DNA from: Promethearchaeota archaeon
Lineage (GTDB): Archaea > Asgardarchaeota > Lokiarchaeia > Sigyniarchaeales > SOKP01
Assembly (NCBI GenBank): GCA_048938855.1
Contig: JBHLLT010000022.1
Coordinates: 1 to 47,723, forward strand
Length of the DNA: 47,723 bases
Reading direction: 5' to 3'
Shown: positions 3,462 to 34,595 of the stretch, one piece after another
How positions within the stretch are numbered: position 1 is the first letter of the stretch
Layout: each line of letters starts with the position of its first letter
Program-made: the position numbers and the translations under genes
Notes under the pieces: model-generated
Databases searched by the model: none
Told to the model about the DNA's origin: nothing
What the model saw: only the letters and a program-made list of their open reading frames with translations

Positions 3462-4346
3462 CTATGAAGGTTCACCTTCTAATTTTTTTAATGCTTCACA
3501 TTCATGGGTATATCGATCTAATGATTCTTTTTCTTGATCGAGAAACCTATTAGCACGATTTATGAGATTATCAAAATCTATAATATGAGCATCAACATCA
3601 GGGCCATCTACACAAGCAAAGTATATATCACCGTCTTTTGTAGGAAAACGACACCCTCCGCACATACCAGTGCCATCAATCATAATCGTATTTAATGATA
3701 CATACGTTTTCACCTTGGGTAATCCCTCTATACCACTTGTAGTTAATGCTACATTTTTCATCATTATTAAAGGCCCAATTGCGATAACTAAATCGATCAT
3801 CCGTTTTTTGATTAATTCTTTTAATGGTGAAGTTACAAAACCCTTGATTCCCGCACTTCCATCATTAGTAGTGATTATTATCTCATCACTTACCATACTC
3901 ATTTTATCCTTCCAAAAAATTAGATCTGCGGTTCGAGCGCCTAATATTGATATGATTGTATTCCCTACATTCTTCAATTCCTTTGCTTGAGGATAACAAG
4001 GGGCAATACCTACTCCACCACCAATAATAATTACTGGATTATCATATTTCTTTATATGTATCTTATTTCCTAAAGGCCCAACTACATCTGATATTTCATC
4101 ACCTTCCTCTTGATGAGAAAGTAATAATGTAGATTTTCCTACAACTTGAATTACAAGTGTAATAATTCCTTTTTCTCTGTTGTAATCCGCAATAGTAAGG
4201 GGAATTCTCTCGCCTTTCTCGTTAATCCTAATTAATACAAAATTTCCAGCATATGCTTTTTTAGCAATTAATGGGGCAAAAATATCCATTTCGAATAATG
4301 TGCCACTATCACCAAGCTGAACCTTTTTTATAATTTTATAAGACAA
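3462..4346 (-). CDS. nfnA: NfnA/SudB (PyrK-like FAD, NAD, [2Fe-2S]) small subunit of Nfn transhydrogenase
   Basis: GERIPLTI, GGGVGIAP and MIDGTGMCGGCR...CVDGP motifs (Asp/Cys-ligated 2Fe-2S). Directly upstream of the NfnB-like gene. Confidence 0.9.
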   Translation of the reverse strand: MSYKIIKKVQLGDSGTLFEMDIFAPLIAKKAYAGNFVLIRINEKGERIPLTIADYNREKGIITLVIQVVGKSTLLLSHQEEGDEISDVVGPLGNKIHIKKYDNPVIIIGGGVGIAPCYPQAKELKNVGNTIISILGARTADLIFWKDKMSMVSDEIIITTNDGSAGIKGFVTSPLKELIKKRMIDLVIAIGPLIMMKNVALTTSGIEGLPKVKTYVSLNTIMIDGTGMCGGCRFPTKDGDIYFACVDGPDVDAHIIDFDNLINRANRFLDQEKESLDRYTHECEALKKLEGEPS

Positions 4347-4474: not shown

Positions 4475-4691
4475 TTAATTCGTCCCCATTTTTGATATGT
4501 AAAATAATAACCTTTATTAAATAGATTGTTTCAAATCAATATAAAAATGTAATTTAAATAAAGTAATTTACTAATTGGAAAAGTTAATTTTCTAAAAAAC
4601 TTATTTAGTATTAAGATTCAAATATTTTCAATTTATATTATATATTTTAATAAGCACGTAAAGGAAAAAAATAGTAAATTAGTTCAAAACT

Positions 4692-6248
4692 ATGGCAATT
4701 TTAGTGTTAGATTTTGGAGGACAATATACACATCTAATTACTCGACGGATAAGAGATTTGGGTGTGTACTCTGAAATTTTACCTTTTGATGTAGATCTTG
4801 ATATATTGATTAAAAAAAACCCGAAAGCTATAATTCTTTCAGGAGGCCCTGGAAGTGTCTATGAGAAAGATGATCCTAAATTAAGTAATGAATTTTTTCA
4901 ATTTACAATCCAAAACAAAATTCCAGTCTTAGGAATTTGCTATGGTCATCATTTGATTATGCAACAAATGGGAGGCAGAGTTGAATCTAAAGAAAAAAAA
5001 GAATATGGAAAAGCAAAGCTCACAATTATTAAACCTAATTTACTTTTTGAAGACTTAGAAAAAGAACAATTAATATGGATGTCTCATGGAGATCAGATCA
5101 TAGAACTTGCGAAAGGATTTGAAGTATATGCTAATACTGAAACATGTCCGGTTGCTGCATACGGAAATCGAGAAAAACTACTATATGGAGTTCAATTCCA
5201 TCCAGAAGTATCAAACACACCGAATGGAAATAAAATCTTAGAAAACTTCATATATAAAATTGCTAAAGCTAAAAATGAATGGAAATTAGAAGGATGGATT
5301 GATAAGACTATTGAAGAATTAAGAAAAGAAATTGGTTCAGATAAAAAAGTTGTTTTGGGATTAAGTGGTGGAGTTGATTCTTCTGTTACTGCTGTGCTTC
5401 TTCATAAAGCAATTGGAGAAAGGTTGCATTGTATTTTCGTAAATAATGGTGTATTAAGAAAAAATGAAGAATTTGAAGTTCAGGAAACGTTTAGAGAAAA
5501 ACAAAAATTTAAACATTTCCATTATGTTGACGCCGAAGATATCTTTCTAAAAAGACTTGCGAATGTTAAAGATCCTGAGGAGAAACGACGAATAATTGGC
5601 CATACGTTTATTGAAGTTTTTGAGAATAAGACTATTGAATTAGAAAAAGCGTATCCGGATATTAATTATCTTGCACAGGGAACGATTTATCCCGATCGAG
5701 TTGAAACAAGTGCTACTAGTAAAGTTTCAGCTAAAATTAAATCACATCATAATTTAACTCTTCCAGAGAATATGAAGTTAAAGATAATTGAGCCTTTAAG
5801 AGATCTTTATAAAGATGAGGTAAGAAGAGTTGGTTTAAAATTAGGTTTACCAAAAAATATAATTAATCGTCATCCATTCCCAGGACCTGGGTTAGCAGTC
5901 AGGATAATAGGCGCAGTAGATAAAGAAAAGTTGACTATTTTAAGGAATGCAGATGAAATTCTAATAGAAGAGATTAGAAATGCCGGAATTTACAACCAAA
6001 TCTGGCAAGCATTTTGTGTATTTCTTCCTTTGAAGACTGTTGGAATAATGGGTGATTTTCGCACTTATGAGTATATTTGTTCCATAAGAATAGTTGAATC
6101 GAGTGATGCTATGACAGCTAACTTTTTCAAATTAGATTGGAACCTCCTTGAAAGAATTGGAACGAGAATTGCTAATGAGGTCCAAGGTATAAATCGTGTA
6201 GTTTATGATATTTCAAACAAGCCTCCAAGTACAATAGAATATGAGTAA
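4692..6248 (+). CDS. guaA: GMP synthase (glutamine-hydrolysing), single-chain GATase + synthase
   Basis: LDFGGQYT, GICYG (Cys), QFHPE, SGGVDS, IKSHHN, HPFPGPGL and KPPSTIEYE motifs. Confidence 0.97.
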   Translation: MAILVLDFGGQYTHLITRRIRDLGVYSEILPFDVDLDILIKKNPKAIILSGGPGSVYEKDDPKLSNEFFQFTIQNKIPVLGICYGHHLIMQQMGGRVESKEKKEYGKAKLTIIKPNLLFEDLEKEQLIWMSHGDQIIELAKGFEVYANTETCPVAAYGNREKLLYGVQFHPEVSNTPNGNKILENFIYKIAKAKNEWKLEGWIDKTIEELRKEIGSDKKVVLGLSGGVDSSVTAVLLHKAIGERLHCIFVNNGVLRKNEEFEVQETFREKQKFKHFHYVDAEDIFLKRLANVKDPEEKRRIIGHTFIEVFENKTIELEKAYPDINYLAQGTIYPDRVETSATSKVSAKIKSHHNLTLPENMKLKIIEPLRDLYKDEVRRVGLKLGLPKNIINRHPFPGPGLAVRIIGAVDKEKLTILRNADEILIEEIRNAGIYNQIWQAFCVFLPLKTVGIMGDFRTYEYICSIRIVESSDAMTANFFKLDWNLLERIGTRIANEVQGINRVVYDISNKPPSTIEYE

Positions 6249-6351
6249 AATATCTTATCTTAATATTTAATTTTTTGAAATTTTACCTATTAAATTTTAA
6301 TTCTTATATAAATTAGATCCTATAAAATCATATTTTTATGAATGGATTATA

Positions 6352-8142
6352 ATGAAAGAAAAAGAAATTGCTTGGGATTTAACAGGAATTTTCTCTGGAT
6401 ATAACGACCCTAAAATTGCTGAAAATATGGAAAGACTTACGAAAGAAGCTAATGAATTTATAAAAAAGTATAAAGGAAAAATCAATATACCTGATTTTAC
6501 TCCTCAAAATTTATTAGATTTGTTTCAAAAGCAAGAAAAATTCAATGCTAATGTTGATGAGATTGAATTATTTTCAAATCGTTTATACGTTGCGAATATG
6601 ACAATTCCTGAAAGTGAAGCTTTAAAAAATAAGGTTGAAGATTTCATTACTAAGATTGCTAAAGATTTGGCGTTTCTAGAATTAGAAGTGGCTAAATATG
6701 TAAATGAAAATGCTGAAATAATTGAAGATCCTATTCTCTCTAATTATAAACATAAATTAGAAATAATTAAAAGAGCATATCCTCATAATTTATCGGAAGT
6801 GGAAGAACAACTTATCCTCGAGAAAGATCAATATGGTGTTATAGCTTGGAGCAATCTTCAATCAAAGTGGCTAAATACCAGAAAAATTGTAGTAAATGTT
6901 GAAGGTGTTGATAAAGAACTTTCATATGGAGAAGCTAATGCTTTATTGAACCACCCTGATAGAGGAACAAGAATCTCAGCTAATAAATCTATTTATGGCT
7001 TATTGGGGGAAGAAGAAATTGTTTTTTCATCAGCATTACGAAGCGTTTGCGGTGATTGGTTAAATAATTCAAAAAGACGTAAATATGATAATCCAATGCA
7101 TGACAGTCTAATTGTAAATGATTCTACCCAGGAAATTATAGATAATTTAATGAATGCAATAGAAGAAGGAAGTGATGTCTATCGAAAATATATGAATCTC
7201 AAAGCAAAAATTTTAGGTTTTCCAAAATTAAATTGCGCTGATGTCCGTGCTCCCTTAACACTAGCACCACATAAGAAATATTCCTGGGATACTACAAAAA
7301 AGCTTGTTCTTCAAGCTTATGAAAGATTCAATGACGAATTTTTTGAGATTGTAAATGATATGTTTAATAGAAGTCATATTGATGCAAGCCCTAGAAAAGG
7401 TAAAAGAAATGGAGCAAACTGTGCTGCTTGGTTCAATGCAAAGTCTGCTTTTGTTTTGATGACTTTTACTGGTGAGTTAAATGAAATTTTTACTCTTGCT
7501 CATGAACTTGGACATGCTATCCATGATTATTTAGCTATTAAAGAGCAAACATTCTTTAATTTTCATCCAGGTTATACTGTTGCAGAAGTAGCATCCACGT
7601 TTGGGGAATTACTATTAACAGATCTCCTTCTTGAAACGACGGAATCAAAAGAAGAAAAAATGGGAATATTAGCACATGTATTGGATGATGCAGGTCAAGC
7701 TGCATTTCAAGTAAGTGCAAGAGTTTGGTTTGAACAAGACTTATATAAAGCAATTGAAAATGGTGAAAATCTAGATGGAAAAACGATTTCAAAATATTGG
7801 TGTGCAGGAAGAGATAGGATTTATGGAGATTCCGTTGAATGGTTTGAAGAGATGGATTGGGAATGGACTATGAAACCACATTATTATATACCAAATTTTC
7901 GATTCTATAATTATCCCTATGTTTATGCCCAATTATTTGTCTATGCATTATACCAAACTTATAAGACTGAAGGTAAAGATTTTGTTCCCAAATTCAAAAA
8001 ACTTCTCGCTGCTGGGGGGAGTGTTTCACCTGAAGAACTTGGTAGATATGTAGGTTTAGATATCACTAAAAAAGATTTCTGGAAGTTGGGTATAAAACAG
8101 TATGGAGATTTTGTAAATCAACTAGAAAAACTCATGAAATAA
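6352..8142 (+). CDS. pepF: Oligoendopeptidase F (M3B family)
   Basis: N-terminal WDL, RKGKRNGA, TLAHELGHAIH (HExxH), AEVAS and PHYY..FYNYPY motifs. Confidence 0.93.
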   Translation: MKEKEIAWDLTGIFSGYNDPKIAENMERLTKEANEFIKKYKGKINIPDFTPQNLLDLFQKQEKFNANVDEIELFSNRLYVANMTIPESEALKNKVEDFITKIAKDLAFLELEVAKYVNENAEIIEDPILSNYKHKLEIIKRAYPHNLSEVEEQLILEKDQYGVIAWSNLQSKWLNTRKIVVNVEGVDKELSYGEANALLNHPDRGTRISANKSIYGLLGEEEIVFSSALRSVCGDWLNNSKRRKYDNPMHDSLIVNDSTQEIIDNLMNAIEEGSDVYRKYMNLKAKILGFPKLNCADVRAPLTLAPHKKYSWDTTKKLVLQAYERFNDEFFEIVNDMFNRSHIDASPRKGKRNGANCAAWFNAKSAFVLMTFTGELNEIFTLAHELGHAIHDYLAIKEQTFFNFHPGYTVAEVASTFGELLLTDLLLETTESKEEKMGILAHVLDDAGQAAFQVSARVWFEQDLYKAIENGENLDGKTISKYWCAGRDRIYGDSVEWFEEMDWEWTMKPHYYIPNFRFYNYPYVYAQLFVYALYQTYKTEGKDFVPKFKKLLAAGGSVSPEELGRYVGLDITKKDFWKLGIKQYGDFVNQLEKLMK

Positions 8143-8165
8143 AATAAGAAAAAAATAAATTACAT

Positions 8166-8894
8166 TTATCTTTCTTTTCTTTTAATAAATACAATTAATC
8201 CGGTTAATGCAACTGCTGTCACTCCTACAATTACAATACTGACAGTGAGATTTCGGGATGAAATTAACGTGGATAATGCTTCACATACTTCAATTGTAGG
8301 AGCTCGGCTTGCTCCACCACCAGTTGGTCCTCCTCCTGTGGTACCAGTCACTATCCTTTGATCAATCACAACTCGTTCATCTACAGTTATCCCTCCAGCT
8401 GCAGTTACTTGTGTAGCTGAATTAACATCATAAGAGATTCTGACACCATCAACAATATCTGCAGCAGCAAGAACACGAATTCCAATGCATAATGAAGAAA
8501 TAATTAAACCTAAGTTATAAGCATTAACTAATAAATTCAATGTCGTTGGGTCATTTAACAACGCAGACCAATGACCCCCACTTGGAATAAAAATGCAATC
8601 ATATTGAAAGAGGGTGTTATTGTTGACTTCTGAAATTAAAGTATTTACTGGGACAGGCCTTGGATTCGTATTATAACATGATGTAACTGATGGTGTTAAT
8701 CCTGCGGTGGTGACTTCCCAGCCCCAAAATTCAAAATATCCTTTAGCAGGGAAGTAAGTATCCCCAACGCTGTTTGCAGCTAATATCATAACTTTATGGC
8801 CAAACATATATGCATTAACAGAAGTAGCAAAGAGACAACTAGTAATTGGCAGGAGAGATAAAAAAAGCAGAATAAATTTTGAATAATTTTTCAA
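8166..8894 (-). CDS. Secreted, C-terminally membrane-anchored DJ-1/PfpI family protein
   Basis: Signal-peptide-like N-terminus, YDCIFIPSGG, SSLCIG nucleophile elbow, VVIDQRIVTG, and a C-terminal TM helix followed by KRKER. Confidence 0.8.
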   Translation of the reverse strand: MKNYSKFILLFLSLLPITSCLFATSVNAYMFGHKVMILAANSVGDTYFPAKGYFEFWGWEVTTAGLTPSVTSCYNTNPRPVPVNTLISEVNNNTLFQYDCIFIPSGGHWSALLNDPTTLNLLVNAYNLGLIISSLCIGIRVLAAADIVDGVRISYDVNSATQVTAAGGITVDERVVIDQRIVTGTTGGGPTGGGASRAPTIEVCEALSTLISSRNLTVSIVIVGVTAVALTGLIVFIKRKER

Positions 8895-10169: not shown

Positions 10170-10658
10170 CTATCTTTTTTTATTTATTAATTCGGTGAAA
10201 GAGCTGTTTTCTTTAATAACATTTAATACTATATGAGTATTAGTACGTTCAACATAAGGAGATGTATGAATATCTTTTATCATTTTACTTAAATCCTCTC
10301 TATTTTTAAATCTTGCCAAAATGAGAGCATCGTATTCTCCAGTAATGTCATAAACTGCGAATATGTGAGGATTTTTTGCCACATTTTTCTCTACTTCAAG
10401 CATTTTACCTTTTGAAATTGTTAATTCAATTATTGCAATAATATCATAGCCTAGTTTTTCAAAATCAATTTGAACTCCATAATTTTTTATTATTTTGTCC
10501 TTCTCTAAATTTTCAACATGACTTTTAATGGTTACAGGCGATTTATTACCTAGATCTTTTGCTAATTGGCGAAGTGAGATTCGGCCATCTATACTTATTT
10601 TCTTTAGAATCTCAATATCCAGATCAGAAAAATCATAAAAGTTAGATTGTTGAGGCAT
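10170..10658 (-). CDS. Lrp/AsnC family transcriptional regulator
   Basis: DLDIEILKKISIDGRISLRQLA HTH, IDFEKLGY linker and VYDITGEYD RAM motif. Confidence 0.95.
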   Translation of the reverse strand: MPQQSNFYDFSDLDIEILKKISIDGRISLRQLAKDLGNKSPVTIKSHVENLEKDKIIKNYGVQIDFEKLGYDIIAIIELTISKGKMLEVEKNVAKNPHIFAVYDITGEYDALILARFKNREDLSKMIKDIHTSPYVERTNTHIVLNVIKENSSFTELINKKR

Positions 10659-10948: not shown

Positions 10949-11341
10949 ATGACATTAAAATGTCCAATTTGTGGAGAGGAATATTTCCATGATAGTAAAA
11001 TATGCCAAATTTGTGAAAGAAATTCAAATTATAGTGAATTGATAAATATTCATAAATATAAATCCAAAAAGTGGAATTGGGGTATCTTTTTAGAAATTGA
11101 TAAATTTTCGTCTGATAACTATAAACCTGATGATGCTTATATTAGGGTTACTTCTGAACCTAAATTAGTTGATTTTAAACCAAAAAAAGGGTATATATGG
11201 AATTGTAATTCGCAAACAAGGGATCGAAATTTCTATATTTTAAGATCAGGAATCTCTCAATTGAAAAACGTAAAAAAAATACCATTAACAAGATCCAACA
11301 TTCAAGAGAACCAAAAATTTAACTCATTAATTTATGAATGA
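10949..11341 (+). CDS. Zn-ribbon protein preceding glnA
   Basis: CPIC-x10-CQIC, two W-N-(W/C) repeats (KKWNWG, YIWNCNS) and C-terminal LIYE. Confidence 0.8.
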   Translation: MTLKCPICGEEYFHDSKICQICERNSNYSELINIHKYKSKKWNWGIFLEIDKFSSDNYKPDDAYIRVTSEPKLVDFKPKKGYIWNCNSQTRDRNFYILRSGISQLKNVKKIPLTRSNIQENQKFNSLIYE

Positions 11342-11421: not shown

Positions 11422-12771
11422 ATGATTGATCGAACTGATCCAAAAAGGAAACAGTCATGTGAAGCTGTTATAGAGAAAATTAAAGAAGAAGAAATAAAGT
11501 TAATTTATCTCCAATTCACTGATATTCATGGAATTATTAAGAGTTTCGAAGTAAATTCAAAAAGAATTGAGGATATATTTGAGATAGGGGAAAATTTTGA
11601 CGGAAGCTCGATAACTGGATATGGAGCGATTGAAGAGAGTGATAAGGTTGCACTTCCAGATCCTAGTACATTTTATCTTTTACCTTGGAGAAAAGAAAAT
11701 AAAGTCGCTAGAGTCATTTGTGACATTTTTAAACCTGATGGGCAACGATATGAAGGAGATCCTAGGTTTATTCTGCAGCAAGCAGTAAACAGAGCAGAGA
11801 AACATGGTTATACTTACTATTGTGCTCCAGAAATGGAGTTTTTCGTTCTTACACCTGATACTAAGCAAGCATTCAAACCTTCAGATATGAGAGGATATTT
11901 TGATTACGATCCTTATGATATAAATGAAATGATAAGATATAGGATTGCAGATTATTGTGATGCGATGGGTATTAATGTGGAATGCATTCATCATGAAGTT
12001 GCTTTTGGGCAACATGAGGTTGATTTTAGATATGACAAAGCAGTTAATACAGCTGATAATACATTAACGATTAAAACTATTGTTAAAACAGTTTCAGCTC
12101 AGCATAATTTAATAGGAACTTTTATGCCAAAACCATTTGAGGGAATTAACGGATCTGGAATGCACGTGCACCAATCTCTTTGGAAGAATGGAAATAATGT
12201 CTTTTATGATGAAACTGATAAAGATAATATTTCAATTTTAATGAAAAAATGGATTGCTGGGCAATTAAAATATGCAATTCCTATGTGTGCAGTCTTAAGT
12301 AGTTGGCCTAATTCATATAAAAGATTAGTTCCAGGATATGAAGCACCAGTCTATTTAGCTTGGGGCTTTCGAAATAGATCTCCATTGCTAAGAGTACCAG
12401 ATTTTCATAATAAATCAAGTGCGGCAAGAGTTGAAATACGTTGTCCAGATCCCTCGGGAAATCCATATCTCCAATTTGCAGTACTTTTAAGTTCAGGATT
12501 AGAAGGCATTCTTTCAGAAGATATTAAAATTCCCGAACCAACAGACAGAAATGTATATCATTTATCGTCTAAAGAAATGGAAAAAGAGGGAATTATTTCA
12601 TTACCAGGAAGTTTACATGAAGCTTTACAACATTTCAGAAATTCAGAACTTATGAAAGACATATTTGGAGAATTAGCTTTTAAAAATTACTATTACGCTA
12701 AGCTTGAAGAATATGACGCTTATCGCTTTGTAGTAAGCGAATGGGAAAGAGATAGATATATCAGATTATAA
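11422..12771 (+). CDS. glnA: Glutamine synthetase type I (alpha-like)
   Basis: FDGSSI, PEMEFF, HHEVAFGQHE, FMPKPFEGINGSGMHVHQS, NSYKRLVPGYEAP and RVEIRCPD motifs. Confidence 0.97.
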   Translation: MIDRTDPKRKQSCEAVIEKIKEEEIKLIYLQFTDIHGIIKSFEVNSKRIEDIFEIGENFDGSSITGYGAIEESDKVALPDPSTFYLLPWRKENKVARVICDIFKPDGQRYEGDPRFILQQAVNRAEKHGYTYYCAPEMEFFVLTPDTKQAFKPSDMRGYFDYDPYDINEMIRYRIADYCDAMGINVECIHHEVAFGQHEVDFRYDKAVNTADNTLTIKTIVKTVSAQHNLIGTFMPKPFEGINGSGMHVHQSLWKNGNNVFYDETDKDNISILMKKWIAGQLKYAIPMCAVLSSWPNSYKRLVPGYEAPVYLAWGFRNRSPLLRVPDFHNKSSAARVEIRCPDPSGNPYLQFAVLLSSGLEGILSEDIKIPEPTDRNVYHLSSKEMEKEGIISLPGSLHEALQHFRNSELMKDIFGELAFKNYYYAKLEEYDAYRFVVSEWERDRYIRL

Positions 12772-12849
12772 ACTCAATCATTTATTTCTTTTAAAAATAA
12801 TAATGTGTTTCAATTTTAAACCTATAATTGTATAATATGAATTTGGAAT

Positions 12850-15315
12850 ATGCAAGATATAAAAAAATGGAGATTTTCAATCCCTAGAATAGTTTCACCT
12901 CAAATACCAAAAAGTACAAAATTTAAGTTAACTGAAAAATCTGATTATGTTCATTATGGACAAATAGGATTTGGAGAATATTTTACTCCAGAAAAGTATT
13001 GGACGCCTCAAATTATATCGCAGATCTTATACCAAGCAGAAACAGGAAAAATTCCCGTATCTGGTGCAGGATACGGAGGATCTTTTGCTGGAGAGGGATT
13101 TGATGCTATATGGTTTGACATGTCAGAAATAGTACGCCCTACGAGGGATGGTATTCACGGAAGAGAATATATCTCTACGACTATTGAATTAGGTCAAAAA
13201 GCCTTGAATTTAAATTTTAATAACGAGAATAAATTTTTGAAAAAACTCCCTTCTCTACTAAAACTTCCCTTCCCCATTATCTTTAATCCCATTCCTTTAA
13301 TATCAAAAGACTTCACAAAAATCAAATCTATTATAGAAACGGCATATTCATTAGGTACTATAGCGATTATCCCTCAATCAGAGTATTCAGAAGATTTTTT
13401 ACCATTTTCAAAGGCTGTTTGTTTACGATTGAATAACAAACTGAATCAATTAGAAAAAAAAATGATTCAAAGAGCAACGATGGTTGAGATTGAGGATATT
13501 CATTTAATGAAAAATGTGAAGAAAATTGCTCCTAATATCATTTGTTCAATTTTTCTTCCCGTAGAAGAAGGGATTGAAAATAAGGTATTCTCTCTAATTA
13601 GAAGTGGAATTGATATTATCCACTTGAACTTTGATTTTTATGGAAAAAGTAAAGTAGGAAATATTACTGCAGTTCTTCAAAGAATTCATAATTTTCTCAT
13701 CGAAAACAAAAGTCGCAGTTCTGTTAGCATTATAGTTAGTGGTGGTATAGCAGCTGCAGAGCATGTTGCAAAAGCTATGATTTGTGGAGCTGATTGTGTT
13801 GCAATAGATTTTGTATTATTAATTGCTCTCGGATGTTCATTATGGGCTGATTTATCTTTTCCATGTGTAGCAGAACATGGTGAAATTGATTTGAATTGGG
13901 CCATTAATAGATTAAAAAATCTAATAGCTGCTTGGAGAGATCAACTTCTTGAGGTTCTTGGTGCAATGGGAATTAGAGAAATTAGGAGAATTAGAGGTGA
14001 AGTTGGTAGGGCAATTTTTTATACAGAGGAGAAGGATAATTTTAGAAATTTATTTAAATCAAGAAGGTTAAATTCAAAACTAGGATATTTAGTACCTCTT
14101 GAACAGATAAGTGTTGGAGATTGTCGTTGGCCACTTGAATTAATTCAAGCAACATTTGAGCAAGCTCGTACAGGATTTCTACCAAAACATCTTGAGTATC
14201 GTATAGGTAGAAGTGCAGGAGGGTTTGATCGTCTTGCTTTCATTTTTGAAGATGATGGAATCCAAATGATGGATGATCAATTAATAGATTTATCAATTCC
14301 CTTAAATTTACGCTCCAAAGGGCCAAAGATAACTATTCCGATGCCAGTTTATTCTGGAGGGATGTCTTTTGGTTCGGTATCTCTTAATGTGATGCTTGCA
14401 CGGGCAATGGCAGCTCAAACGCTCGACTCTTTTATGTCTACAGGTGAAGGAGGTTATCCTGAAGAATTAATACCTTATAAAGAACATGTTATTACTCAAG
14501 TTGCTACTGGTCTATTTGGCGTGAGTGAATCTTCAATTCAAAGAGCTCCAATCATAGAATTCAAATACGCTCAAGGAGCAAAACCTGGTTTAGGAGGCCA
14601 TTTACTTGCAGGAAAAGTAACTGAAGCTGTTGCTAATGCTAGAGAATCTGTACCAGGGATAAGCCTATTTTCACCATTCCCCTTTCATAGTGTTTACTCA
14701 GTAGAAGATCATAAGAAACATATTGATTGGATTAAACAGGTGAATCCAGAAGCGTTAGTAATTGTTAAAGTTTCAACTCCTACAGATGTTGATATGGTTG
14801 CAGTTGGTAGTTATTATGCTGGTGCTAATATTGTAAACATTGATGGATCTTATGGCGGTACAGGAGCAGCTCCAGAGGTAAGTAAAAAAAATATAGCAAT
14901 GCCAATAGAATATGCAATACCAAAGGTACATAAATTTCTAACAAAAGAAGGAATAAGAGATGAAATTATCCTTATTGCGTCTGGAGGTATTCGCACCGGA
15001 TATGATATTGCTAAAGCTATTGCTTTAGGTGCAGATGGTGCAATGGTTGGTACAGCAGATTTAGTAGCATTAGGATGCGAGCGACTTGGAGTGTGTGAAA
15101 AGGGAGATGGGTGTCCAGCAGGTATAACTACTACAGATCCTAAATTTGCTTGCTTAATTGATCCTCAGTGGGGTAAAGACCGTATAATAAATCTTCGAAA
15201 GGCATGGGCTATTCAATTACGACAAATATTAAATGCCCTTGGAATGAAAACTATAAAGGAATTAAGAGGAAGGACGGATACACTATTATATCTAAACAAC
15301 AAGGTGTTATTATGA
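12850..15315 (+). CDS. gltB: Glutamate synthase FMN-binding subunit (GltB2-type) with two tandem synthase-like barrels
   Basis: The C-half has MSFGS, STGEGG, QVATG, EFKYAQGAKPGLGGHL, DGSYGGTG, SGGIRTG and a C-x5-C-x5-C cluster motif. The N-half is a degenerate copy (GFDAIW, SGGIAAAEHVAKAMICGAD, ALGC, LGAMGIREIRRIRG). Confidence 0.9.
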   Translation: MQDIKKWRFSIPRIVSPQIPKSTKFKLTEKSDYVHYGQIGFGEYFTPEKYWTPQIISQILYQAETGKIPVSGAGYGGSFAGEGFDAIWFDMSEIVRPTRDGIHGREYISTTIELGQKALNLNFNNENKFLKKLPSLLKLPFPIIFNPIPLISKDFTKIKSIIETAYSLGTIAIIPQSEYSEDFLPFSKAVCLRLNNKLNQLEKKMIQRATMVEIEDIHLMKNVKKIAPNIICSIFLPVEEGIENKVFSLIRSGIDIIHLNFDFYGKSKVGNITAVLQRIHNFLIENKSRSSVSIIVSGGIAAAEHVAKAMICGADCVAIDFVLLIALGCSLWADLSFPCVAEHGEIDLNWAINRLKNLIAAWRDQLLEVLGAMGIREIRRIRGEVGRAIFYTEEKDNFRNLFKSRRLNSKLGYLVPLEQISVGDCRWPLELIQATFEQARTGFLPKHLEYRIGRSAGGFDRLAFIFEDDGIQMMDDQLIDLSIPLNLRSKGPKITIPMPVYSGGMSFGSVSLNVMLARAMAAQTLDSFMSTGEGGYPEELIPYKEHVITQVATGLFGVSESSIQRAPIIEFKYAQGAKPGLGGHLLAGKVTEAVANARESVPGISLFSPFPFHSVYSVEDHKKHIDWIKQVNPEALVIVKVSTPTDVDMVAVGSYYAGANIVNIDGSYGGTGAAPEVSKKNIAMPIEYAIPKVHKFLTKEGIRDEIILIASGGIRTGYDIAKAIALGADGAMVGTADLVALGCERLGVCEKGDGCPAGITTTDPKFACLIDPQWGKDRIINLRKAWAIQLRQILNALGMKTIKELRGRTDTLLYLNNKVLL

Positions 15316-17747
15316 AGGTTATGAAAAAAGATGCTGAAGGAGGATGTGGAGTCGTTGGATTTTGTTCAACTGAGAAAATTGTAGGTAAACATTTAATACC
15401 TCCATGCATCCAAATGCATAATAGGGGAAATGGGAAAGGTGGAGGTATTGTTGCCATGGGTTTAGAAGCTTCTCAACTTAATGTGACAGAAGAGATTCTA
15501 AAAACAAATTATTTAATACAAATTGCTTACCTTAAACCTGATATACGCGAAAAAGTAGAAGCTCAATTTATTTTTAACAATTATGATGTTTTTACTCATT
15601 ACAAAATCAAAACTAAAAATTATAGTTCAAGCAAACTTGAAATAATCCCACCTGAGGTATATAGATATTTTTGTCGTGTAAAAAAGCCAATTCTAAAGAA
15701 ATTCATGAAAAGTAATGGTTTTAAAAATTTCAATAAAGCTGAAGATGAATTTGTATTTTTAATTAGTTTTCAAATAAATAAAAAATTCTATAGTGAAGAT
15801 GATGCTCAAGAAGCATTCGTTTTATGTCATGGAAAAAATATGATCGTTTTTAAGATTGTAGGATATGCTGAAGATGCTATTGATTATTATAATTTAATGG
15901 ATTTAAAAGCTCATCTTTGGGTAGGACATCAAAGATATCCTACCAGAGGAAGAGTCTGGCACCCAGGTGGTGCTCATCCTTTTATAGGGGTGAAAGAAGC
16001 TTTAGTACATAACGGAGACTTTGCAAATTATCATTCCATTTGTGAATATCTTCATCAAAATGGAAGGGAACCATTATTTTCGACAGATACCGAGGTTGCT
16101 GCGTTATTATTTGATCTATGGACAAGAATTTATGATTATCCATTAGAATATGCAATTGAAGCATTTGCACCCACAACTGAAAGAGATTTTGCTATGTTGT
16201 CAACTGAAAAGCAACATATTTATCAACTTATTCAAAGTTATCATGTTCAAAATTCTCCTGATGGTCCTTGGTTTTTTATTATTGCCAGAAACGATGATGT
16301 AGAGGACCAATTCCAATTACTTGGCATAACTGATACATCTATGCTGAGACCACAGGTATTTGCTCTTCAAGAAAACGATAATGTTAAAATTGGTATTATA
16401 GCTTCTGAAAAACAAGCAATTGATTCAATTCTTTCAAGTATTTCCGAGGAGGACAATAGATATTGTTCTATAGCTGACTTATATTGGAATGCTCGTGGAG
16501 GTAGTTATACTGATGGGGGTGCTTTTTTATTTAATTTGAAGAATAATAAATTATCTTGTACAGATAAGTTTGGTAAAAAAATCAAGATTCCAAAAAGAGA
16601 GCCTTTAAAGGTTAAAACTATTAAGGATTACCAATTTGGTCCTGATTTTAATACAATTATCAAGGAATTTGCCAATATGGATTACGGAGAGATATTAGGA
16701 TTTTTAAAATCTGCTGAACTCTATGCTAAAAAAGGAGATTCTCAATTCCAAAAAACTGTGGAGGTTATAACTAAATTAATTGATAGAGTGTATTCAATAG
16801 GAGGCAAAAAAAGGAGTAATCTATTAGCATTATATCATAAAACATTGTATTCAATATTTCGTGGAATTTCAATAGATTCAAAATTGTTTAAATTTTTTAG
16901 TTTACAATCTTCATCTATCCCTATCCCTGATTCAAATAATCAATGTTTAATTATTGACGGTAAGAATTTTTATTCAGAAGGCCCCGAAAGCTTAGCTTCA
17001 GTATTGGTTAAAGCTTTTAATGGTGGGTGGGTGAATTTTATTTTGTTTGATCTTAGAGGACAAAGATTTTGCGGTTGTGGTTTTGGTTCTCATTCAAAAT
17101 CGATTAGAATTGATGTATATGGTTCTCCTGGTGATTATTTAGGATCAGGTATAACCAATACTGAAATTTTGGTGCATTCTAATGGGCAGGATCAATGGGG
17201 CCAAATTATGAAATCTGGAAAACTCGTTGTCTATGGGGATGTTGGTCAAACATTTCTTTATGGCGCTAAAGGAGGCACTTGTTATGTGAGAGGAAATGCT
17301 GCTGGAAGGGCACTTATAAATGCAGTTGGGAATCCTCGCGTCATCATTAATGGAAGTTGTTTAGATTATTTAGCAGAATCTTTTATGGCAGGTGATGTTT
17401 TCCATAATGGTGGATTTGTTATTTTGAATGGAATAAGCTTAAATATAGATGGTATATTAGAAGCGTATCCAGAACCTTATCCAGGAGGAAATCTATTTTC
17501 TCTAGCTTCTGGTGGAGCTATTTATATTCGTGATCCATTCAATAAGACTTCAAAAAGTCAGCTCAATGGAGGTAGCTTTGCCATTCTTTCAAGTCAAGAT
17601 TGGAATCTCATTAAACCTTACCTAGAAGAAAATGAAAGGTTATTCGGCATTAAAATTGATGATTTATTGACCGTAAACAATCAATTAAAGACTCCAAAGG
17701 AGGTATATAGAAAAATTGTTGTTGAAAGCACAGAGGTTTTAAAATGA
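15312..17747 (+). CDS. gltB: Glutamate synthase amidotransferase (class II/Ntn, GltB1) fused to the GXGXG beta-helix domain (GltB3)
   Basis: Start revised to ATG 15312, which has an AAGGTG RBS and an ATGA overlap with the upstream stop. Motifs EGGCGVVG (Ntn Cys), HQRYPT, HPF, VHNGD, TDTEV, LRP, IASE. The C-terminus has GxGxG repeats (GSPGDYLGSG, GAKGG, GGAIYIR). Confidence 0.9.
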   Translation: MKVMKKDAEGGCGVVGFCSTEKIVGKHLIPPCIQMHNRGNGKGGGIVAMGLEASQLNVTEEILKTNYLIQIAYLKPDIREKVEAQFIFNNYDVFTHYKIKTKNYSSSKLEIIPPEVYRYFCRVKKPILKKFMKSNGFKNFNKAEDEFVFLISFQINKKFYSEDDAQEAFVLCHGKNMIVFKIVGYAEDAIDYYNLMDLKAHLWVGHQRYPTRGRVWHPGGAHPFIGVKEALVHNGDFANYHSICEYLHQNGREPLFSTDTEVAALLFDLWTRIYDYPLEYAIEAFAPTTERDFAMLSTEKQHIYQLIQSYHVQNSPDGPWFFIIARNDDVEDQFQLLGITDTSMLRPQVFALQENDNVKIGIIASEKQAIDSILSSISEEDNRYCSIADLYWNARGGSYTDGGAFLFNLKNNKLSCTDKFGKKIKIPKREPLKVKTIKDYQFGPDFNTIIKEFANMDYGEILGFLKSAELYAKKGDSQFQKTVEVITKLIDRVYSIGGKKRSNLLALYHKTLYSIFRGISIDSKLFKFFSLQSSSIPIPDSNNQCLIIDGKNFYSEGPESLASVLVKAFNGGWVNFILFDLRGQRFCGCGFGSHSKSIRIDVYGSPGDYLGSGITNTEILVHSNGQDQWGQIMKSGKLVVYGDVGQTFLYGAKGGTCYVRGNAAGRALINAVGNPRVIINGSCLDYLAESFMAGDVFHNGGFVILNGISLNIDGILEAYPEPYPGGNLFSLASGGAIYIRDPFNKTSKSQLNGGSFAILSSQDWNLIKPYLEENERLFGIKIDDLLTVNNQLKTPKEVYRKIVVESTEVLK

Positions 17748-18535
17748 ATATAATTGTATGCTTAAAACAAGTACCTGATACTGATGAAGTAAAAACTGAT
17801 CCAGAAACAGGTCGAATTATTCGAGAAGGAATAGCAGGTACTATAAATCCTTTCGATATGTTTGTCCTTGAAGAAGCTTTAAGATTAAAGGAGATTTATG
17901 GGGGAAAAATTTCTTTACTAAGTATGGGGCCAAAAGATGCGATGAACACCCTTTATTTTGGATTAGCTTTAGGTGCTGATGAAGCATATTTATTATCAGA
18001 TATTAAATTTGCGGGATCGGACACATTGGCTACATCCTACGCCCTTTCCTGTGGTATAAAGACTCTTGGTCATTATGATTTAATTATTTGCGGAATAAAA
18101 ACTACTGATGGAGACACAGGCCAAGTAGGGGCAAATTTAGCAGAAATACTTGACATCCCTAGTGTTTATTATGTCAATAAGATACTAAAATATCAAAATA
18201 ATAATATTGAAGTTGAAAGACTTTTAGAAGATAGAAGTCAAATTTTACAAGTTTCTCTCCCTTGTCTTATTTCAATTGTTAAGGGCGCTAACATACCTCG
18301 AATGCCTACTTTACTCGGAAAGATTGAAGCTAAGAAAAAATTATTGAAAATACTTAATGCTTATGAAGTCGATGCTATAGAAGATTATTGTGGCTCCGAA
18401 GGCTCCCCTACTAGAGTAGTGAAGGTATTTCTTCCAGAAAAAAGAAAACAGGGAGTAATTGTAAAAGGTTGTTTTGATCAAAATATCATTAAATTGTTAC
18501 AATTTTTAAAAAATAAGAAAATGGTGTCATTCTAA
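17744..18535 (+). CDS. etfB: Electron transfer flavoprotein beta subunit (FixA/EtfB)
   Basis: CLKQVPDT, INPFD, SMGP, FAGSDTLAT and DGDTGQVG motifs. ATGA overlap with the preceding gene. Confidence 0.95.
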   Translation: MNIIVCLKQVPDTDEVKTDPETGRIIREGIAGTINPFDMFVLEEALRLKEIYGGKISLLSMGPKDAMNTLYFGLALGADEAYLLSDIKFAGSDTLATSYALSCGIKTLGHYDLIICGIKTTDGDTGQVGANLAEILDIPSVYYVNKILKYQNNNIEVERLLEDRSQILQVSLPCLISIVKGANIPRMPTLLGKIEAKKKLLKILNAYEVDAIEDYCGSEGSPTRVVKVFLPEKRKQGVIVKGCFDQNIIKLLQFLKNKKMVSF

Positions 18536-19734
18536 TGATTCACATTGATCAAGATAAATGCATTGGATGTGGTGAGTGTGTTGAAGCATGTATGTTTGGT
18601 TCATTATCTCTTAAAACCAATATTCCCTCAATTTCTGAGGATTGCCGCTTGTGTGGAGCATGTGCCAGAATCTGCCGCTATAATGCCATCATCATTAAGC
18701 GAAAAAAAAAGAAGAAAACTATTGACTGGAAAGGTGTTCTCATTTTTGGGGAGCAACGTGATGGAGTACTTTTAGAAGTTGTATATGAGTTATTAAGTAA
18801 GGGTAAAAAATTAGCTGATAAACTTAATGAGTCACTTTTATGTGTTGTATTAGGAAATTCAGTAAAAGGGATCAATGATTTAAAGTCTTATGGGGTAGAT
18901 GAGATACATTGTTTTAATGATCATAGCCTCAAGATGTTTAATTGTGAAATATATTCACAGATAATTTCAAATTTCGTTAAAGACATAAAACCAAGTATTT
19001 TTTTAATAGGAGCAACCTCAATTGGTCGAGAATTAGGCCCTAGAATAGCTGCAAAACTCAAAACTGGATTAACCGCAGATTGTACTGAACTAGAGATAAA
19101 TAAGGAAGGATTATTACTACAAACTAGACCTGCATTTGGTGGAAATATCATGGCATCTATAATATGCCCATCTTCAAGACCACAAATGGCTACTGTACGC
19201 CCAAAAGTCATGAAAATTGTGGAGAACAAAAATGATAAAGGCCGATTAATTAATCATCATGTAAATTCCGAGTTTGTAAAATCAAGAATTGAAACATTAA
19301 GAGAAAGGAAATACAATAATCACTGTAATATTGAAAATGCTGATATTATAGTTTCGGGAGGATTAGGGTTAGGTAAAAAAGAAGGTTTTATTTTATTGCA
19401 AGAACTTGCAGATGAATTAAACGGAGTAATTGCCGCAAGTAGACCTGCTGTTGATGCTGGATGGGCTGATCCAACGGTTCAAGTTGGAATGTCTGGTAAA
19501 GTTGTTCAACCTCATTTATATATTGCCTGTGGAATTTCTGGAGCTGTACAACATCGAGTTGGTATGGAAACTTCTGATGTAATTGTTGCTATAAATAAAG
19601 ATGAACGAGCTCCTATTTTTGACATTGCAGATTTTGGCATAGTAGCTGATTTGTATGATTTTCTTCCAAAATTTATCCATAATCTTAAAAAAAATAAAAA
19701 CGATCTTATTGTTTCCCTGAAAAAAAGTAGATAA
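18535..19734 (+). CDS. etfA: Electron transfer flavoprotein alpha subunit with an N-terminal 2[4Fe-4S] ferredoxin domain
   Basis: CIGCGECVEAC and CRLCGACARIC clusters, then GLTADCT, RPAFGGN, RPQMATVRP, SRPAVDAGW, QVGMSG and GISGAVQH. TAATG overlap with etfB. Confidence 0.95.
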   Translation: MIHIDQDKCIGCGECVEACMFGSLSLKTNIPSISEDCRLCGACARICRYNAIIIKRKKKKKTIDWKGVLIFGEQRDGVLLEVVYELLSKGKKLADKLNESLLCVVLGNSVKGINDLKSYGVDEIHCFNDHSLKMFNCEIYSQIISNFVKDIKPSIFLIGATSIGRELGPRIAAKLKTGLTADCTELEINKEGLLLQTRPAFGGNIMASIICPSSRPQMATVRPKVMKIVENKNDKGRLINHHVNSEFVKSRIETLRERKYNNHCNIENADIIVSGGLGLGKKEGFILLQELADELNGVIAASRPAVDAGWADPTVQVGMSGKVVQPHLYIACGISGAVQHRVGMETSDVIVAINKDERAPIFDIADFGIVADLYDFLPKFIHNLKKNKNDLIVSLKKSR

Positions 19735-19813: not shown

Positions 19814-21463
19814 ATGCCAAATTCAGTTTTAAAAGTTGTAATAGCTCAAATAAATTCAACTGTAGGAGATATTGAATTTAATAAAAAAAAAATCGCGGAG
19901 ATAATTCGAAAGAACCAAGATGTTGATCTCATCATTTTTCCAGAAATGTCCTTAGTGGGTTATCCTCTTATGGACCATATACTTGATCCCTTAATTCAAG
20001 AAAAAAATGAGATTGCAGTTGAAGATATAAAGAATTTAAACTCCTTACCAGCAATTATTCTCGGGACCTTTACAATGCCATCTGAATTGAACGATAAAAT
20101 CCAGCAATTCTACAATTCTGCTCTAATTATTGAAGAAAATAATATAAAACATATTGAAAATAAACGGCTTTTACCTAATTATGATGTTTTTGATGAAAGA
20201 AGATATTTTTCCTTTGACAATAAATTTGAGCCTGTTAAAATAAAAGGAATAAAGTGTGGGATTTTAATATGTGAAGACATATGGGATGATAACTATGAAA
20301 TTAAAGTTGCTGATAACCTTGTTCATAATGGTGCTGAAATTCTTATAGTAATAAATGCGTCTCCTTATCATATTAATAAATTTAACCTTAGAGCTGACTT
20401 AGTTTGTAATAAGGCTAAGAAGCTTTCAATACCAATCATCTATGTTAATATGGTTGGTGGATTGGATGAAATTGTTTATGATGGTCAGAGTTTTATATCA
20501 AATCAGTTTGGTCAAATTATTTTTAAAGCGAAAGAGTTCGAAGAAGATATTTCTATAAATGAGGTAAGAACTGGAGAATCAGCTTTAAAAAATGAACCAG
20601 ATTTAGAGATCGATTGGAGAGATGAGGTATTAAAAGCGCTTAGGTTAAACTTATATGATTATTATCATAAAAGTGGCATATTTAAAGGTGCAGTTTTAGG
20701 TTTAAGTGGGGGAATTGATTCCGCTTTTACAGCGTATGTATGCGCTACAGCATTAGGATCGGAGAAAGTTACTTGTATTATGATGCCAACAAGATTTACT
20801 TCTCAAGAGAGTATTGAATTAGCTCAAAAAATTTGTGAAAATCTCAAAGTTAAATACATAATATATCCTATCGATGATCTATTTGCTGCTTATGAAAAAG
20901 ATATAGAAAAAAATCTTGGAAAGCAACCTTTTGATATAGCAGATGAAAACCTTCAAGCTCGTATTAGAGCGAATATTTTAATGTACTATTCAAACAAATT
21001 CAATTGGTTATTAGTATCAACAGGAAATAAATCTGAGATTGCCGTAGGATATTGCACTCTTTATGGAGACACATGTGGAGGGAAAAATGTACCTGGAGAT
21101 CTATTAAAAACTCAGATATATCAGATATGCAATTGGATAAATCGAAAAGAAGAGATAATTCCTAAAGGAATAATAGAAAGACCTCCCACTGCGGAGTTAC
21201 GAGAAAATCAGAAGGATAGTGATTCTTTACCCTCATATGAAATATTAGATGTAATATTGGAACAAATTATTGAAAATGGGCTAGGTGCTGAATTTGAAAA
21301 GTTGATTAATTTAAATATTGATAAGATTACAATTGAGAAAGTAAGAACTCTTTATTTGAATTCGGAATATAAGCGTAGACAATTGGTTCAGACAATAAAA
21401 GTAAGTGAAAGCGCATTTGGAATTGGAAGAAGGTATCCCGTTTTAAAAAAAATTAAGTACTAG
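19814..21463 (+). CDS. nadE: Glutamine-dependent NAD+ synthetase (nitrilase domain + synthetase)
   Basis: FPE, K..LPNYDVFDERRYF and ICEDIW (E-K-C triad). Also SGGIDS, ENLQARIR, TGNKSE, PPTAELR and SEYKR. Confidence 0.96.
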   Translation: MPNSVLKVVIAQINSTVGDIEFNKKKIAEIIRKNQDVDLIIFPEMSLVGYPLMDHILDPLIQEKNEIAVEDIKNLNSLPAIILGTFTMPSELNDKIQQFYNSALIIEENNIKHIENKRLLPNYDVFDERRYFSFDNKFEPVKIKGIKCGILICEDIWDDNYEIKVADNLVHNGAEILIVINASPYHINKFNLRADLVCNKAKKLSIPIIYVNMVGGLDEIVYDGQSFISNQFGQIIFKAKEFEEDISINEVRTGESALKNEPDLEIDWRDEVLKALRLNLYDYYHKSGIFKGAVLGLSGGIDSAFTAYVCATALGSEKVTCIMMPTRFTSQESIELAQKICENLKVKYIIYPIDDLFAAYEKDIEKNLGKQPFDIADENLQARIRANILMYYSNKFNWLLVSTGNKSEIAVGYCTLYGDTCGGKNVPGDLLKTQIYQICNWINRKEEIIPKGIIERPPTAELRENQKDSDSLPSYEILDVILEQIIENGLGAEFEKLINLNIDKITIEKVRTLYLNSEYKRRQLVQTIKVSESAFGIGRRYPVLKKIKY

Positions 21464-34200: not shown

Positions 34201-34595
34201 AACAGATCTCGATCTTCAGTAGCTTCAATAGCCTCAATTGGCGTTCCAAGTACCCTCACATTATATTTTCTTAGTATCTCTCTTTCTTTTAATTCTACTC
34301 CTACATTTAATGCAGTTTGTCCACCAAATGCTAATAAAATGCCATCTGGTTTTTCTTTTTTTATAACCTCTTCTACATATTTAACATTTATTGGTAATAA
34401 ATAAACACTGTTAGATAATTCAGGGTCTGTTTGGATTGTTGCAATATTAGGGTTAATTAAAATGGTTTCAATTCCTTCTTCTTTAAGTGCTTTTAATACT
34501 TGACTTCCAGAATAATCAAATTCTCCTGCTTGACCAATTCGGATACCTCCAGATCCTAAAACTAATGCTTTTTTTATTGTTTTATCTAATGGCAT
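31284..34595 (-). CDS. carB: Carbamoyl-phosphate synthase large subunit
   Basis: GQAGEFDYSG, duplicated ATP-grasp domains (EVNARLSRSS, ECNLRSSRS), NYNPETVSTDYD and an MGS domain. Confidence 0.98.
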   Translation of the reverse strand: MPLDKTIKKALVLGSGGIRIGQAGEFDYSGSQVLKALKEEGIETILINPNIATIQTDPELSNSVYLLPINVKYVEEVIKKEKPDGILLAFGGQTALNVGVELKEREILRKYNVRVLGTPIEAIEATEDRDLFVRAMERSKVKVCKSQAVNSYSEALKAVKNIGFPCMIRVAYTLGGRGSGIVDNMKEFERMAKKGLAQSRINQILIEESIWGWKEIEYEVVRDSEDNCFINCNMENFDPVGLHTGESIVVSPSQTLTNEEYHMLRSASIRVIRNLGIIGECNIQYGLDPFSKEFRAIEVNARLSRSSALASKATGYPLAYVAAKLAIGYTLPELKNKVTGITTACFEPALDYLVLKIPRWDLTKFQKVDRRIGSQMKSVGEVMAIGRTFEEVIQKAIRMLDIGMKGFVANDLDPIEDINDLKYALRNPTDLRVFRIAEAIKRGISIDEIYRLSRVDKWFLYKLKNIIDLERQLQDLDLLETDDNEKKYWLERAKRFGFSDGQIAKIMKVGTIFIRQMRRRLNIQPFVKRIDTLAAEWPAKTNYLYLTYSASEHDINFVNEYKSDLRKVIVLGSGTYRIGASVEFDWGSVNCLWGLKKLGIDQAIMINYNPETVSTDYDISDKLYFEEISGERVLDICELEKASGIVVSAGGQIANNLAAKISKYSEFFRKTNLKILGTHGSRIDMAEDRSKFSILLDQLNIRQPEWKTLTNKDDALEFAKNVGYPVLVRPSYVLSGAAMRVSYDEQTLRDTLDLAASISSEYPVVITKFFTNAREIECDGISDGENVLIGAIVEHIENAGIHSGDATMTIPPQTVSKAVIEIIENYTKQIALALKIIGPFNVQYLVKNGEVYVIECNLRSSRSMPYVSKTRGINLMRLAAEVIMGKKIPERLLDLPYGDYVGIKAPMFSFMRLDKADFRLGVEMASTGEIGIVGQNFQDALLKALEATDMEIPIDGGNVLISIGGEESKNDVIPIAHKLSDLGFKIFATENTALALKTNGIEAVRLYKVHEYGKEPNIMACLQEGHIDMVINIPMPTTLQDKFQTIIEDEYKIRRMAVDYNIPVIVNLQLAQAVVDAIKNIREKDIEIKSLNEYHKKLKEIYW

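Follow-up and report, generated by a model that had tools for sequence, protein, structure and literature searches.

We describe here a block of five genes in an archaeal genome that, as judged from its gene content and conserved residues, probably encodes an assimilatory glutamine synthetase/glutamate synthase (GOGAT) pathway in which a two-FAD electron-transferring flavoprotein (ETF), EtfAB, would substitute for GltD in feeding electrons from NADH to a two-subunit GltB. The block occupies positions 11422-19734 of the window, that is, the whole 47,723-nucleotide stretch of DNA analysed (contig C7), which belongs to a Promethearchaeota metagenome-assembled genome (MAG) of 3.95 Mb with 30% GC, 97% completeness and 7% contamination; Promethearchaeota are also the source of the closest homologous loci. 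Open reading frame (ORF) calling combined with Pfam and NCBIfam profiles shows it to be filled by five ORFs, all on the forward strand: glnA (11422..12771), coding for a type I glutamine synthetase of 449 aa (TIGR00653, 480 bits, above cut-off); a first glutamate synthase gene (12850..15315), whose 821-aa product, subunit 1, unites the central and FMN barrels (Pfam Glu_syn_central and Glu_synthase); a second (15312..17747), whose 811-aa product, subunit 2, joins an N-terminal nucleophile (Ntn) glutaminase (GATase_6) to a GXGXG beta-helix (GXGXG, PF01493); etfB (17744..18535, 263 aa); and etfA (18535..19734, 399 aa). From the first glt gene to etfA the genes are chained through start/stop overlaps, namely ATGA at 15312-15315, ATGA at 17744-17747 and TAATG with base 18535 shared, an arrangement that supports the ETF as the electron input. 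In comparison, glnA lies 78 bp 5' of this chain and nadE 79 bp 3' of it, with no overlap for either. An upstream ATG at 15204 was considered as the start of the second glt gene and rejected, as the close homologs are 811 aa long and do not use it. Family scans of the block detected neither GltD nor FixC, nor any dehydrogenase for acyl-CoA or lactate. A first-pass annotation of this DNA had already read the overlaps exactly as they stand in the sequence, and our scans agree with its statement that these dehydrogenases and GltD are missing from the operon.

Together, the two glt genes supply all four domains of canonical GltB, itself a single four-domain protein (PMC8097209), with their order changed to [central+FMN] and [GATase+GXGXG]. 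Subunit 1 consists of a degenerate 'central' TIM barrel at residues ~45-400 (Pfam PF04898 at 202-379) followed by the FMN/synthase barrel at ~420-815 (synthase region at 485-799). The label 'gltB2' previously given to this gene thus has to be replaced, since the archaeal GltB2 has a single barrel whereas subunit 1 has the central and FMN barrels in tandem. An AF2 model of subunit 1 (pLDDT 85, pTM 0.89) retrieves GltB structures as its top Foldseek matches, over ~830-855 columns with TMq values of 0.59-0.63. Residues K578, R598 and E619 align with K937, R957 and E978 of the Azospirillum brasilense enzyme and are invariant in 100/100 homologs; we take them to be the gate lysine, the 2-oxoglutarate-site arginine and the coupling glutamate, respectively. 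In subunit 2, the glutaminase residues C12, G13, R208, H233-N-G-D236 and T258-D-T-E261 are kept in 130-131 of the 131 homologs, and C12 would be the nucleophile, exposed once a short propeptide is removed. By these residues, the pieces of GltB look catalytically intact. As an aside, the FMN-subunit gene of one close relative (L044, 2016-4658; L-numbers denote the loci and G-numbers the genomes compared) has, as assembled, an in-frame insertion of ~59 aa in which part of the sequence around residues 53-70 recurs, giving a protein of 880 aa versus 821.

Split GltB proteins form a large family across anaerobic bacteria and archaea, most members of which carry ferredoxin-type cysteine motifs and a four-Cys loop beside the FMN. 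In the group to which the window's GltB belongs, all the ferredoxin motifs are gone, as is the second loop cysteine, and the three cysteines that remain follow the pattern of canonical [3Fe-4S] GltB: C743, C749 and C755 are invariant and position 746 is never a cysteine (alignment A1, 100 homologs), and a CxxCxxC motif is found in 0/100 homologs of this group. A census of loci, some of them on truncated contigs, gives the same partition, with the upstream Cys motif absent in 45 of 46 three-Cys proteins and present in 120 of 140 four-Cys proteins. We predict that the three-Cys loop is a [3Fe-4S]-type cluster site. Taken with the absence of the Cys motifs, it implies that the window GltB would require a one-electron donor from outside. 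We also considered whether recruitment of the ETF had caused the loss of the GltB ferredoxin motifs and rejected this, as ETF-less bacteria share the loss and two ETF-linked loci (L254, L259) keep the ferredoxin motif.

The candidate for such a donor is the adjoining ETF, which by motif, structural matches and phylogeny alike is assigned to the two-FAD (Car/Lct/Bcd/Fix) type. EtfB has the recognition loop and carries DGDTGQVG at residues 122-129, and EtfA has an N-terminal 2[4Fe-4S] domain with CxxCxxC beginning at residues 9 and 37; the DGDTGQVG motif and the 2[4Fe-4S] domain had been reported in the first-pass annotation. The top PDB matches of EtfB are LctB (7qh2, E 2e-61), CarD (6fah) and the Acidaminococcus fermentans protein (4kpu), versus E ~1e-18 for the AMP-type ETFs, and EtfA matches CarE (6fah) over its full length with an E-value of 8e-112. 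More specifically, EtfB G123 aligns with G123 of A. fermentans, which is invariant in bifurcating ETFs and replaced by a bulky residue in canonical ones (PMC12630350). This glycine, together with T94 and T97, is invariant in our alignment A3, with the AMP-type controls showing an Asp at the G123 position. In EtfA, R198 (equivalent to CarE R203) and R303 at the electron-transferring FAD (ET-FAD) site are invariant in alignment A2; ArgE203 of CarE lies at the bifurcating FAD (PMC5861303), and this arginine, being present in AMP-type ETFs too, is necessary rather than diagnostic. In our ETF tree, the window sequences fall in a 21-row clade with the FixAB proteins of S. meliloti and an LctBC-type ETF (SH-aLRT 100 versus two outgroup rows), with the AMP-type controls apart; these are quick trees with sparse sampling and weak deep branches. 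Hence, the resemblance to bifurcating group-2 ETFs such as CarDE proposed earlier stands as far as the two-FAD type is concerned, on the evidence of the motifs, the LctB and CarE matches and the tree, and we assign no published sub-group label.

Two further ferredoxin-fused EtfAB pairs are encoded in the same genome, each beside its own acyl-CoA dehydrogenase. This implies that the ferredoxin domain is generic and that the GltB-linked ETF is an extra copy; the latter also follows from the presence in G000, G066, G067, G068, G406 and G307 of acyl-CoA dehydrogenases with their own adjacent ETF. An interpretation of the EtfA ferredoxin domain as a special adaptation to GltB was accordingly discarded: the other two ETFs of the genome have it, and the GltB-linked ETFs of L129, L254 and L259 are without it. 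Among ETFs not linked to GltB, the closest to the window ETF come from Omnitrophota and Latescibacterota, where etfBA shares an operon with an acyl-CoA dehydrogenase gene.

The linkage itself, which the first-pass annotation had suggested surveying across Asgard and other genomes, is conserved and recurs. The fused GATase+GXGXG gene occurs in 27 of 400 Asgard genomes, and in the 10 closest of these, including the window's own, etfB-etfA directly follows the glt genes in 10/10. Among 15 more distant Asgard loci that were fetched, two (families f32 and f26) are also ETF-linked, with a split GltB of the ferredoxin-bearing subtype and an EtfA that has no ferredoxin domain. Outside Asgard, the link recurs in Altiarchaeota, Woesearchaeota (where the glt genes run past the contig end), Undinarchaeales, the assembly GCA_975903105.1, an uncultured bacterium and an ENA contig. 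In the last two (L062, L129) etfBA lies upstream of the glt genes rather than downstream as elsewhere, and the EtfA of the ENA contig is without a ferredoxin domain. The association is thus kept in several phyla and with either gene order, even where ETF identity has fallen to 41-55%, and so is not a product of chance. The two-FAD motifs are kept in every GltB-linked ETF, and a single clade for all of these is rejected (approximately unbiased test, p=0.0175, on a quick tree whose sparse sampling and weak deep branches leave the number of recruitments uncertain), partly due to one nested LctBC-type row; this suggests that an ETF was recruited more than once and each time of the two-FAD type. 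Searches of the incomplete Woesearchaeota MAG turned up no ETF besides the linked one and no match to an acyl-CoA dehydrogenase. Neither the block nor the linked loci examined contain an FAD dehydrogenase or FixCX, the glutamate synthase taking that position, and no GltD was detected adjoining the block in relatives.

Sister Promethearchaeota carry, in the same glnA/Lrp neighbourhood, the archaeal gltB1-2-3 form with a CCG/Fe-S protein, and the two GOGAT forms occur together in 0/61 genomes. The shared locus and the mutual exclusion point to one assimilatory GOGAT having functionally replaced the other. The CCG protein of these sister loci (L037, 5161-6486; L039, 10096-11424; L040, 4833-6158) is a 441-aa CCG plus 4Fe-4S, HdrBC-like protein. 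The distribution is patchy, with 4/61 relatives, 1/17 Undinarchaeota and 2/401 genomes of the Woesearchaeota's phylum, and would be consistent with horizontal transfer. One of the ETF-linked loci, L043 (= G021:C107), is labelled Thorarchaeota in its record and is placed by genome search in the window's own genus, making a mislabelled MAG probable. In G497, a 1-Mb MAG of the Woesearchaeota's phylum, GATase and GXGXG are separate ORFs of a split GltB with no ETF nearby (L287, 8492-10926).

Based on these observations, we propose the following scheme. GlnA, going by its family assignment, would make the glutamine; the Ntn domain would free ammonia that passes to the FMN site, where 2-iminoglutarate would be reduced to glutamate, as the conserved residues and fold suggest. 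NADH would reduce the EtfB-side FAD, and the mobile ET-FAD domain would hand over electrons one at a time to the exposed [3Fe-4S] cluster, from which they would pass to the FMN, a path proposed because of the recurrent gene linkage and the type of the ETF. The second, low-potential electron would move to the EtfA ferredoxin domain, from which it might either exit to free ferredoxin, which would be true bifurcation, or enter GltB, with no net conservation. In favour of the former fate, bifurcation or confurcation is the rule in most complexes of a two-FAD ETF that have been characterised, LctBCD has a ferredoxin domain that is a required relay and an ETF that serves a partner couple at -190 mV, and FixX is an Fe-S subunit that receives electrons from ET-FAD (PMC9232219).

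That the electron leaves as reduced ferredoxin, in a net bifurcation, is a tentative reading to which we accord a real chance, short of probability. The corresponding reaction, which may tentatively be written as 2 NADH + 2 Fdox + glutamine + 2-oxoglutarate -> 2 glutamate + 2 NAD+ + 2 Fdred, has a computed standard free energy of -30 to -14 kJ/mol (textbook potentials, effective couple -66 mV) and of -26 to +19 kJ/mol overall at assumed cellular concentrations. The other fate, with both electrons ending on GltB and no net conservation, has in our estimate about the same chance; this split-and-rejoin path would suit the energetics of glutamate synthase (GltS) and be akin to a scheme put forward at one time for NADPH-GltS.

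Several points tell against ETF input, and against bifurcation in particular. With NADH at -280 mV, the bifurcating reaction at assumed cellular concentrations comes to -11 to +19 kJ/mol, and such marginal energetics would blunt a pathway for scavenging ammonia. The ET-FAD anionic semiquinone/hydroquinone potentials of known ETFs are -36 to -136 mV (PMC8958531), above those of the GltS [3Fe-4S] cluster (-280 mV, or -190 mV with 2-oxoglutarate) and FMN (-240 to -270 mV; PMC8097209); therefore, without retuning, electrons would have to go uphill from ET-FAD to GltB. Acryloyl-CoA reductase, whose ETF is of the two-FAD type, is apparently non-bifurcating (PMC5861303), a precedent from which it follows that a two-FAD ETF is insufficient for bifurcation. 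The genome also codes for four GltD-like (Fer4_20) proteins, one of them 8 kb from the block. A residue scan of ETF-linked versus unlinked GltB returned three conservative positions and no docking signature. Finally, among the fetched loci of the Cys-less GltB group, 14 have an adjacent ETF, at least 12 have none with both flanks assembled and 20 are truncated, these being non-independent samples. In G061, G063 and G064, with ETF-less GltB loci of this kind, the ETFs found are without the two-FAD motif, and therefore this type of GltB must also accept electrons from elsewhere, with free ferredoxin or flavodoxin as the probable donor. Thus, of the earlier proposal of an ETF-driven, possibly bifurcating glutamate synthase, the ETF-driven part is probable, given the linkage, the two-FAD ETF and the GltB pieces that look intact, and net ferredoxin reduction is a tentative reading, in view of the marginal energetics, the ET-FAD potentials and the ETF-less members of the clade.

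Other configurations of the same genes have also to be weighed against the proposed NADH input through the ETF. In one, which we regard as unlikely, GltB would be a ferredoxin-dependent GOGAT, the ETF would bifurcate toward another high-potential acceptor, such as an acyl-CoA dehydrogenase encoded elsewhere, and the low-potential branch alone would reach GltB, by way of free ferredoxin or of the ferredoxin domain on EtfA. The cofactor set of the clade, FMN and a three-Cys cluster with no ferredoxin motif, matches that of ferredoxin-dependent GltS (PMC8097209), and an adjacent ETF is missing from many of its Cys-less members. The closest relatives among unlinked ETFs, in their acyl-CoA dehydrogenase operons, lean the same way, as does G069, in which no ETF other than the linked one was found and there are six acyl-CoA dehydrogenase matches. 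However, the block is not accompanied by a gene for the high-potential partner, no acyl-CoA dehydrogenase was matched in the Woesearchaeota MAG, and L129 lacks a ferredoxin domain on both EtfA and GltB.

Quite unlikely, in our estimate, is that the ETF is a co-regulated passenger and that GltB is fed by free ferredoxin or by a GltD/NfnL-type protein. Such a protein is at hand in the window, where an 888-aa protein joining an FrhB domain of the F420 type to a GltD/NfnL-like module (727-3393, reverse strand) is preceded by a 294-aa NfnS/PyrK-like gene (3462-4346, reverse strand), a pair that is a possible candidate for an F420-linked Nfn transhydrogenase. This pair 8 kb upstream, the four GltD-like proteins of the genome and the ETF-less members of the Cys-less GltB clade would all suit a passenger, yet the pair is on the opposite strand and was not seen adjoining the block in relatives, and the gene overlaps, the two gene orders and the non-monophyly of the linked ETFs would be hard to account for. 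Very improbable is an oxidative mode like that of LctBCD, with glutamate converted to 2-oxoglutarate and ammonia at the FMN and the ETF confurcating with reduced ferredoxin onto NAD+, for although LctB is the best solved relative of EtfB, the main clade of linked ETFs includes an LctBC-type ETF nested within it (SH-aLRT 99, on a long branch of a quick tree) and the 2-oxoglutarate/glutamate couple, at a textbook value of about -140 mV, is near that of pyruvate/lactate (-190 mV), the glutaminase site is conserved in full, the neighbours are glnA, nadE, asnB and nitrogen-type regulators, and a glutamate dehydrogenase-family gene is already present in 5/5 genomes tested.

Set beside known systems, the proposed ETF-fed enzyme combines features that are otherwise found apart. 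With the NADPH-GltS GltB/GltD of A. brasilense (1EA0, 2VDC, 6S6S; also 7MFM), it shares the four GltB domains, the synthase residues, the three-Cys loop and the linkage to glutamine synthetase; it differs in that its GltB is split and reordered and that its block has EtfAB adjacent instead of GltD. Unlike the Synechocystis ferredoxin-dependent glutamate synthase (1LLW, 1OFD), it consists of two polypeptides and is translationally coupled to an ETF. CarCDE and LctBCD of Acetobacterium woodii (6FAH, 7QH2) provide the best structural matches of the ETF and share the N-terminal ferredoxin domain of EtfA and the bifurcating-site Arg and Gly; in contrast to their FAD dehydrogenases, the presumed partner here is an FMN/Fe-S amidotransferase. 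FixABCX/EtfABCX (7KOE) likewise has a two-FAD ETF, and in FixABCX the ET-FAD passes electrons to an Fe-S subunit (PMC9232219), whereas the window block has no FixC or FixX and the acceptor would be 2-iminoglutarate, not quinone. AcrABC of Clostridium propionicum, which gives the window EtfA its best NCBIfam score (below cut-off), also uses a two-FAD ETF as NADH input, though to an acyl-CoA dehydrogenase, and is a precedent for the non-conserving option. The archaeal GltB1/GltB2/GltB3 form, while occupying the same glnA/Lrp locus in sister Promethearchaeota, differs in that it lacks the central barrel, bears ferredoxin motifs on its GltB2, is spread over three separate genes and has a CCG/Fe-S protein rather than an ETF beside it, and is only ~40% identical to the window FMN domain.

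The electron sources of characterised glutamate synthases are GltD with NAD(P)H or ferredoxin (PMC8097209), and the partners of the characterised bifurcating ETFs listed in PMC5861303 are Bcd, CarC, LctD or FixCX. Both the GltB and ETF families are known, and their apparent coupling is not described in the literature that we found: in line with the first-pass annotation, a search that covered few subscription journals returned no ETF-linked or ETF-dependent glutamate synthase. Even without bifurcation, such a coupling would define a third electron-input route to GOGAT. If bifurcation is true, energy-limited anaerobes would regain part of the ATP cost of glutamine synthetase as reduced ferredoxin, and an FMN/[3Fe-4S] amidotransferase would be a new class of partner for bifurcating ETFs, recruited repeatedly in anaerobic archaea and bacteria; we know of no earlier case of flavin-based bifurcation regaining energy from nitrogen assimilation. 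The four genes are soluble and compact and thus amenable to heterologous co-expression.

More generally, the split GltB proteins would make up a large family, apparently unstudied so far, whose redox neighbours vary. Its other branches adjoin an FAD-oxidase/Fe-S protein or MetF/MetV, and the family seems to take interchangeable electron donors, with free ferredoxin as a plausible default. In Aminicenantes and others (L065, L067, L070, L073, L075, L076, L083, L089, L094, L099, L106, L116, L118), a ~600-aa FAD-oxidase (GlcD/LctD-like) with an Fe-S domain precedes a ferredoxin-bearing split GltB, often followed by a 140-aa protein; this oxidase is a candidate for another electron module. In Desulfobacterota-type and other loci (L097, L104, L112, L115, L194), the split GltB lies directly behind MetF/MetV-like genes, assigned by similarity and motif. 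The ETF-less Cys-less loci are mostly bacterial and often follow a GAF-kinase/ANTAR pair or nadE. The former, a double-GAF histidine kinase and an ANTAR regulator (L048, L050-L052, L121, L126, L134, L142, L143, L146, L148, L284, L286), is likely a nitrogen-sensing antitermination system.

The genes flanking the block echo this nitrogen theme. Outside the core, nadE (19814..21463, forward strand) encodes a glutamine-dependent NAD+ synthetase (NF010588, 605 bits, above cut-off), and bacterial loci without an ETF, L049, L121 and L127 among them, also have it close to their glt genes. glnA, whose role would be the supply of glutamine, adjoins the block in the closest Promethearchaeota relatives alone (L041-L045) and not in L061, L123 or L240. 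Upstream of it, a 130-aa protein (10949..11341, forward strand) has no Pfam or NCBIfam match and gave no usable match in the Atlas; its homologs sit before glnA in L040-L044, of which L040 uses the archaeal gltB1-2-3 form. Divergently transcribed from these is an Lrp/AsnC protein (10170..10658, reverse strand; Pfam AsnC_trans_reg), probably an amino-acid-responsive regulator of the block. Lrp genes adjoin glt genes in many loci of the split-GltB family, including L041, L061, L063 and L124; in the last, the stretch 4691-8578 just upstream of the ETF-linked block holds Lrp/AsnC genes, three in number, and on the opposite strand a second gene of the Glu_synthase family (528 aa), a weak match. Elsewhere on the same contig as the window's block are other glutamine-using or redox genes, those for GMP synthase (4692-6248), the large subunit of carbamoyl-phosphate synthase (31284-34595) and a molybdopterin oxidoreductase (40385-42673).

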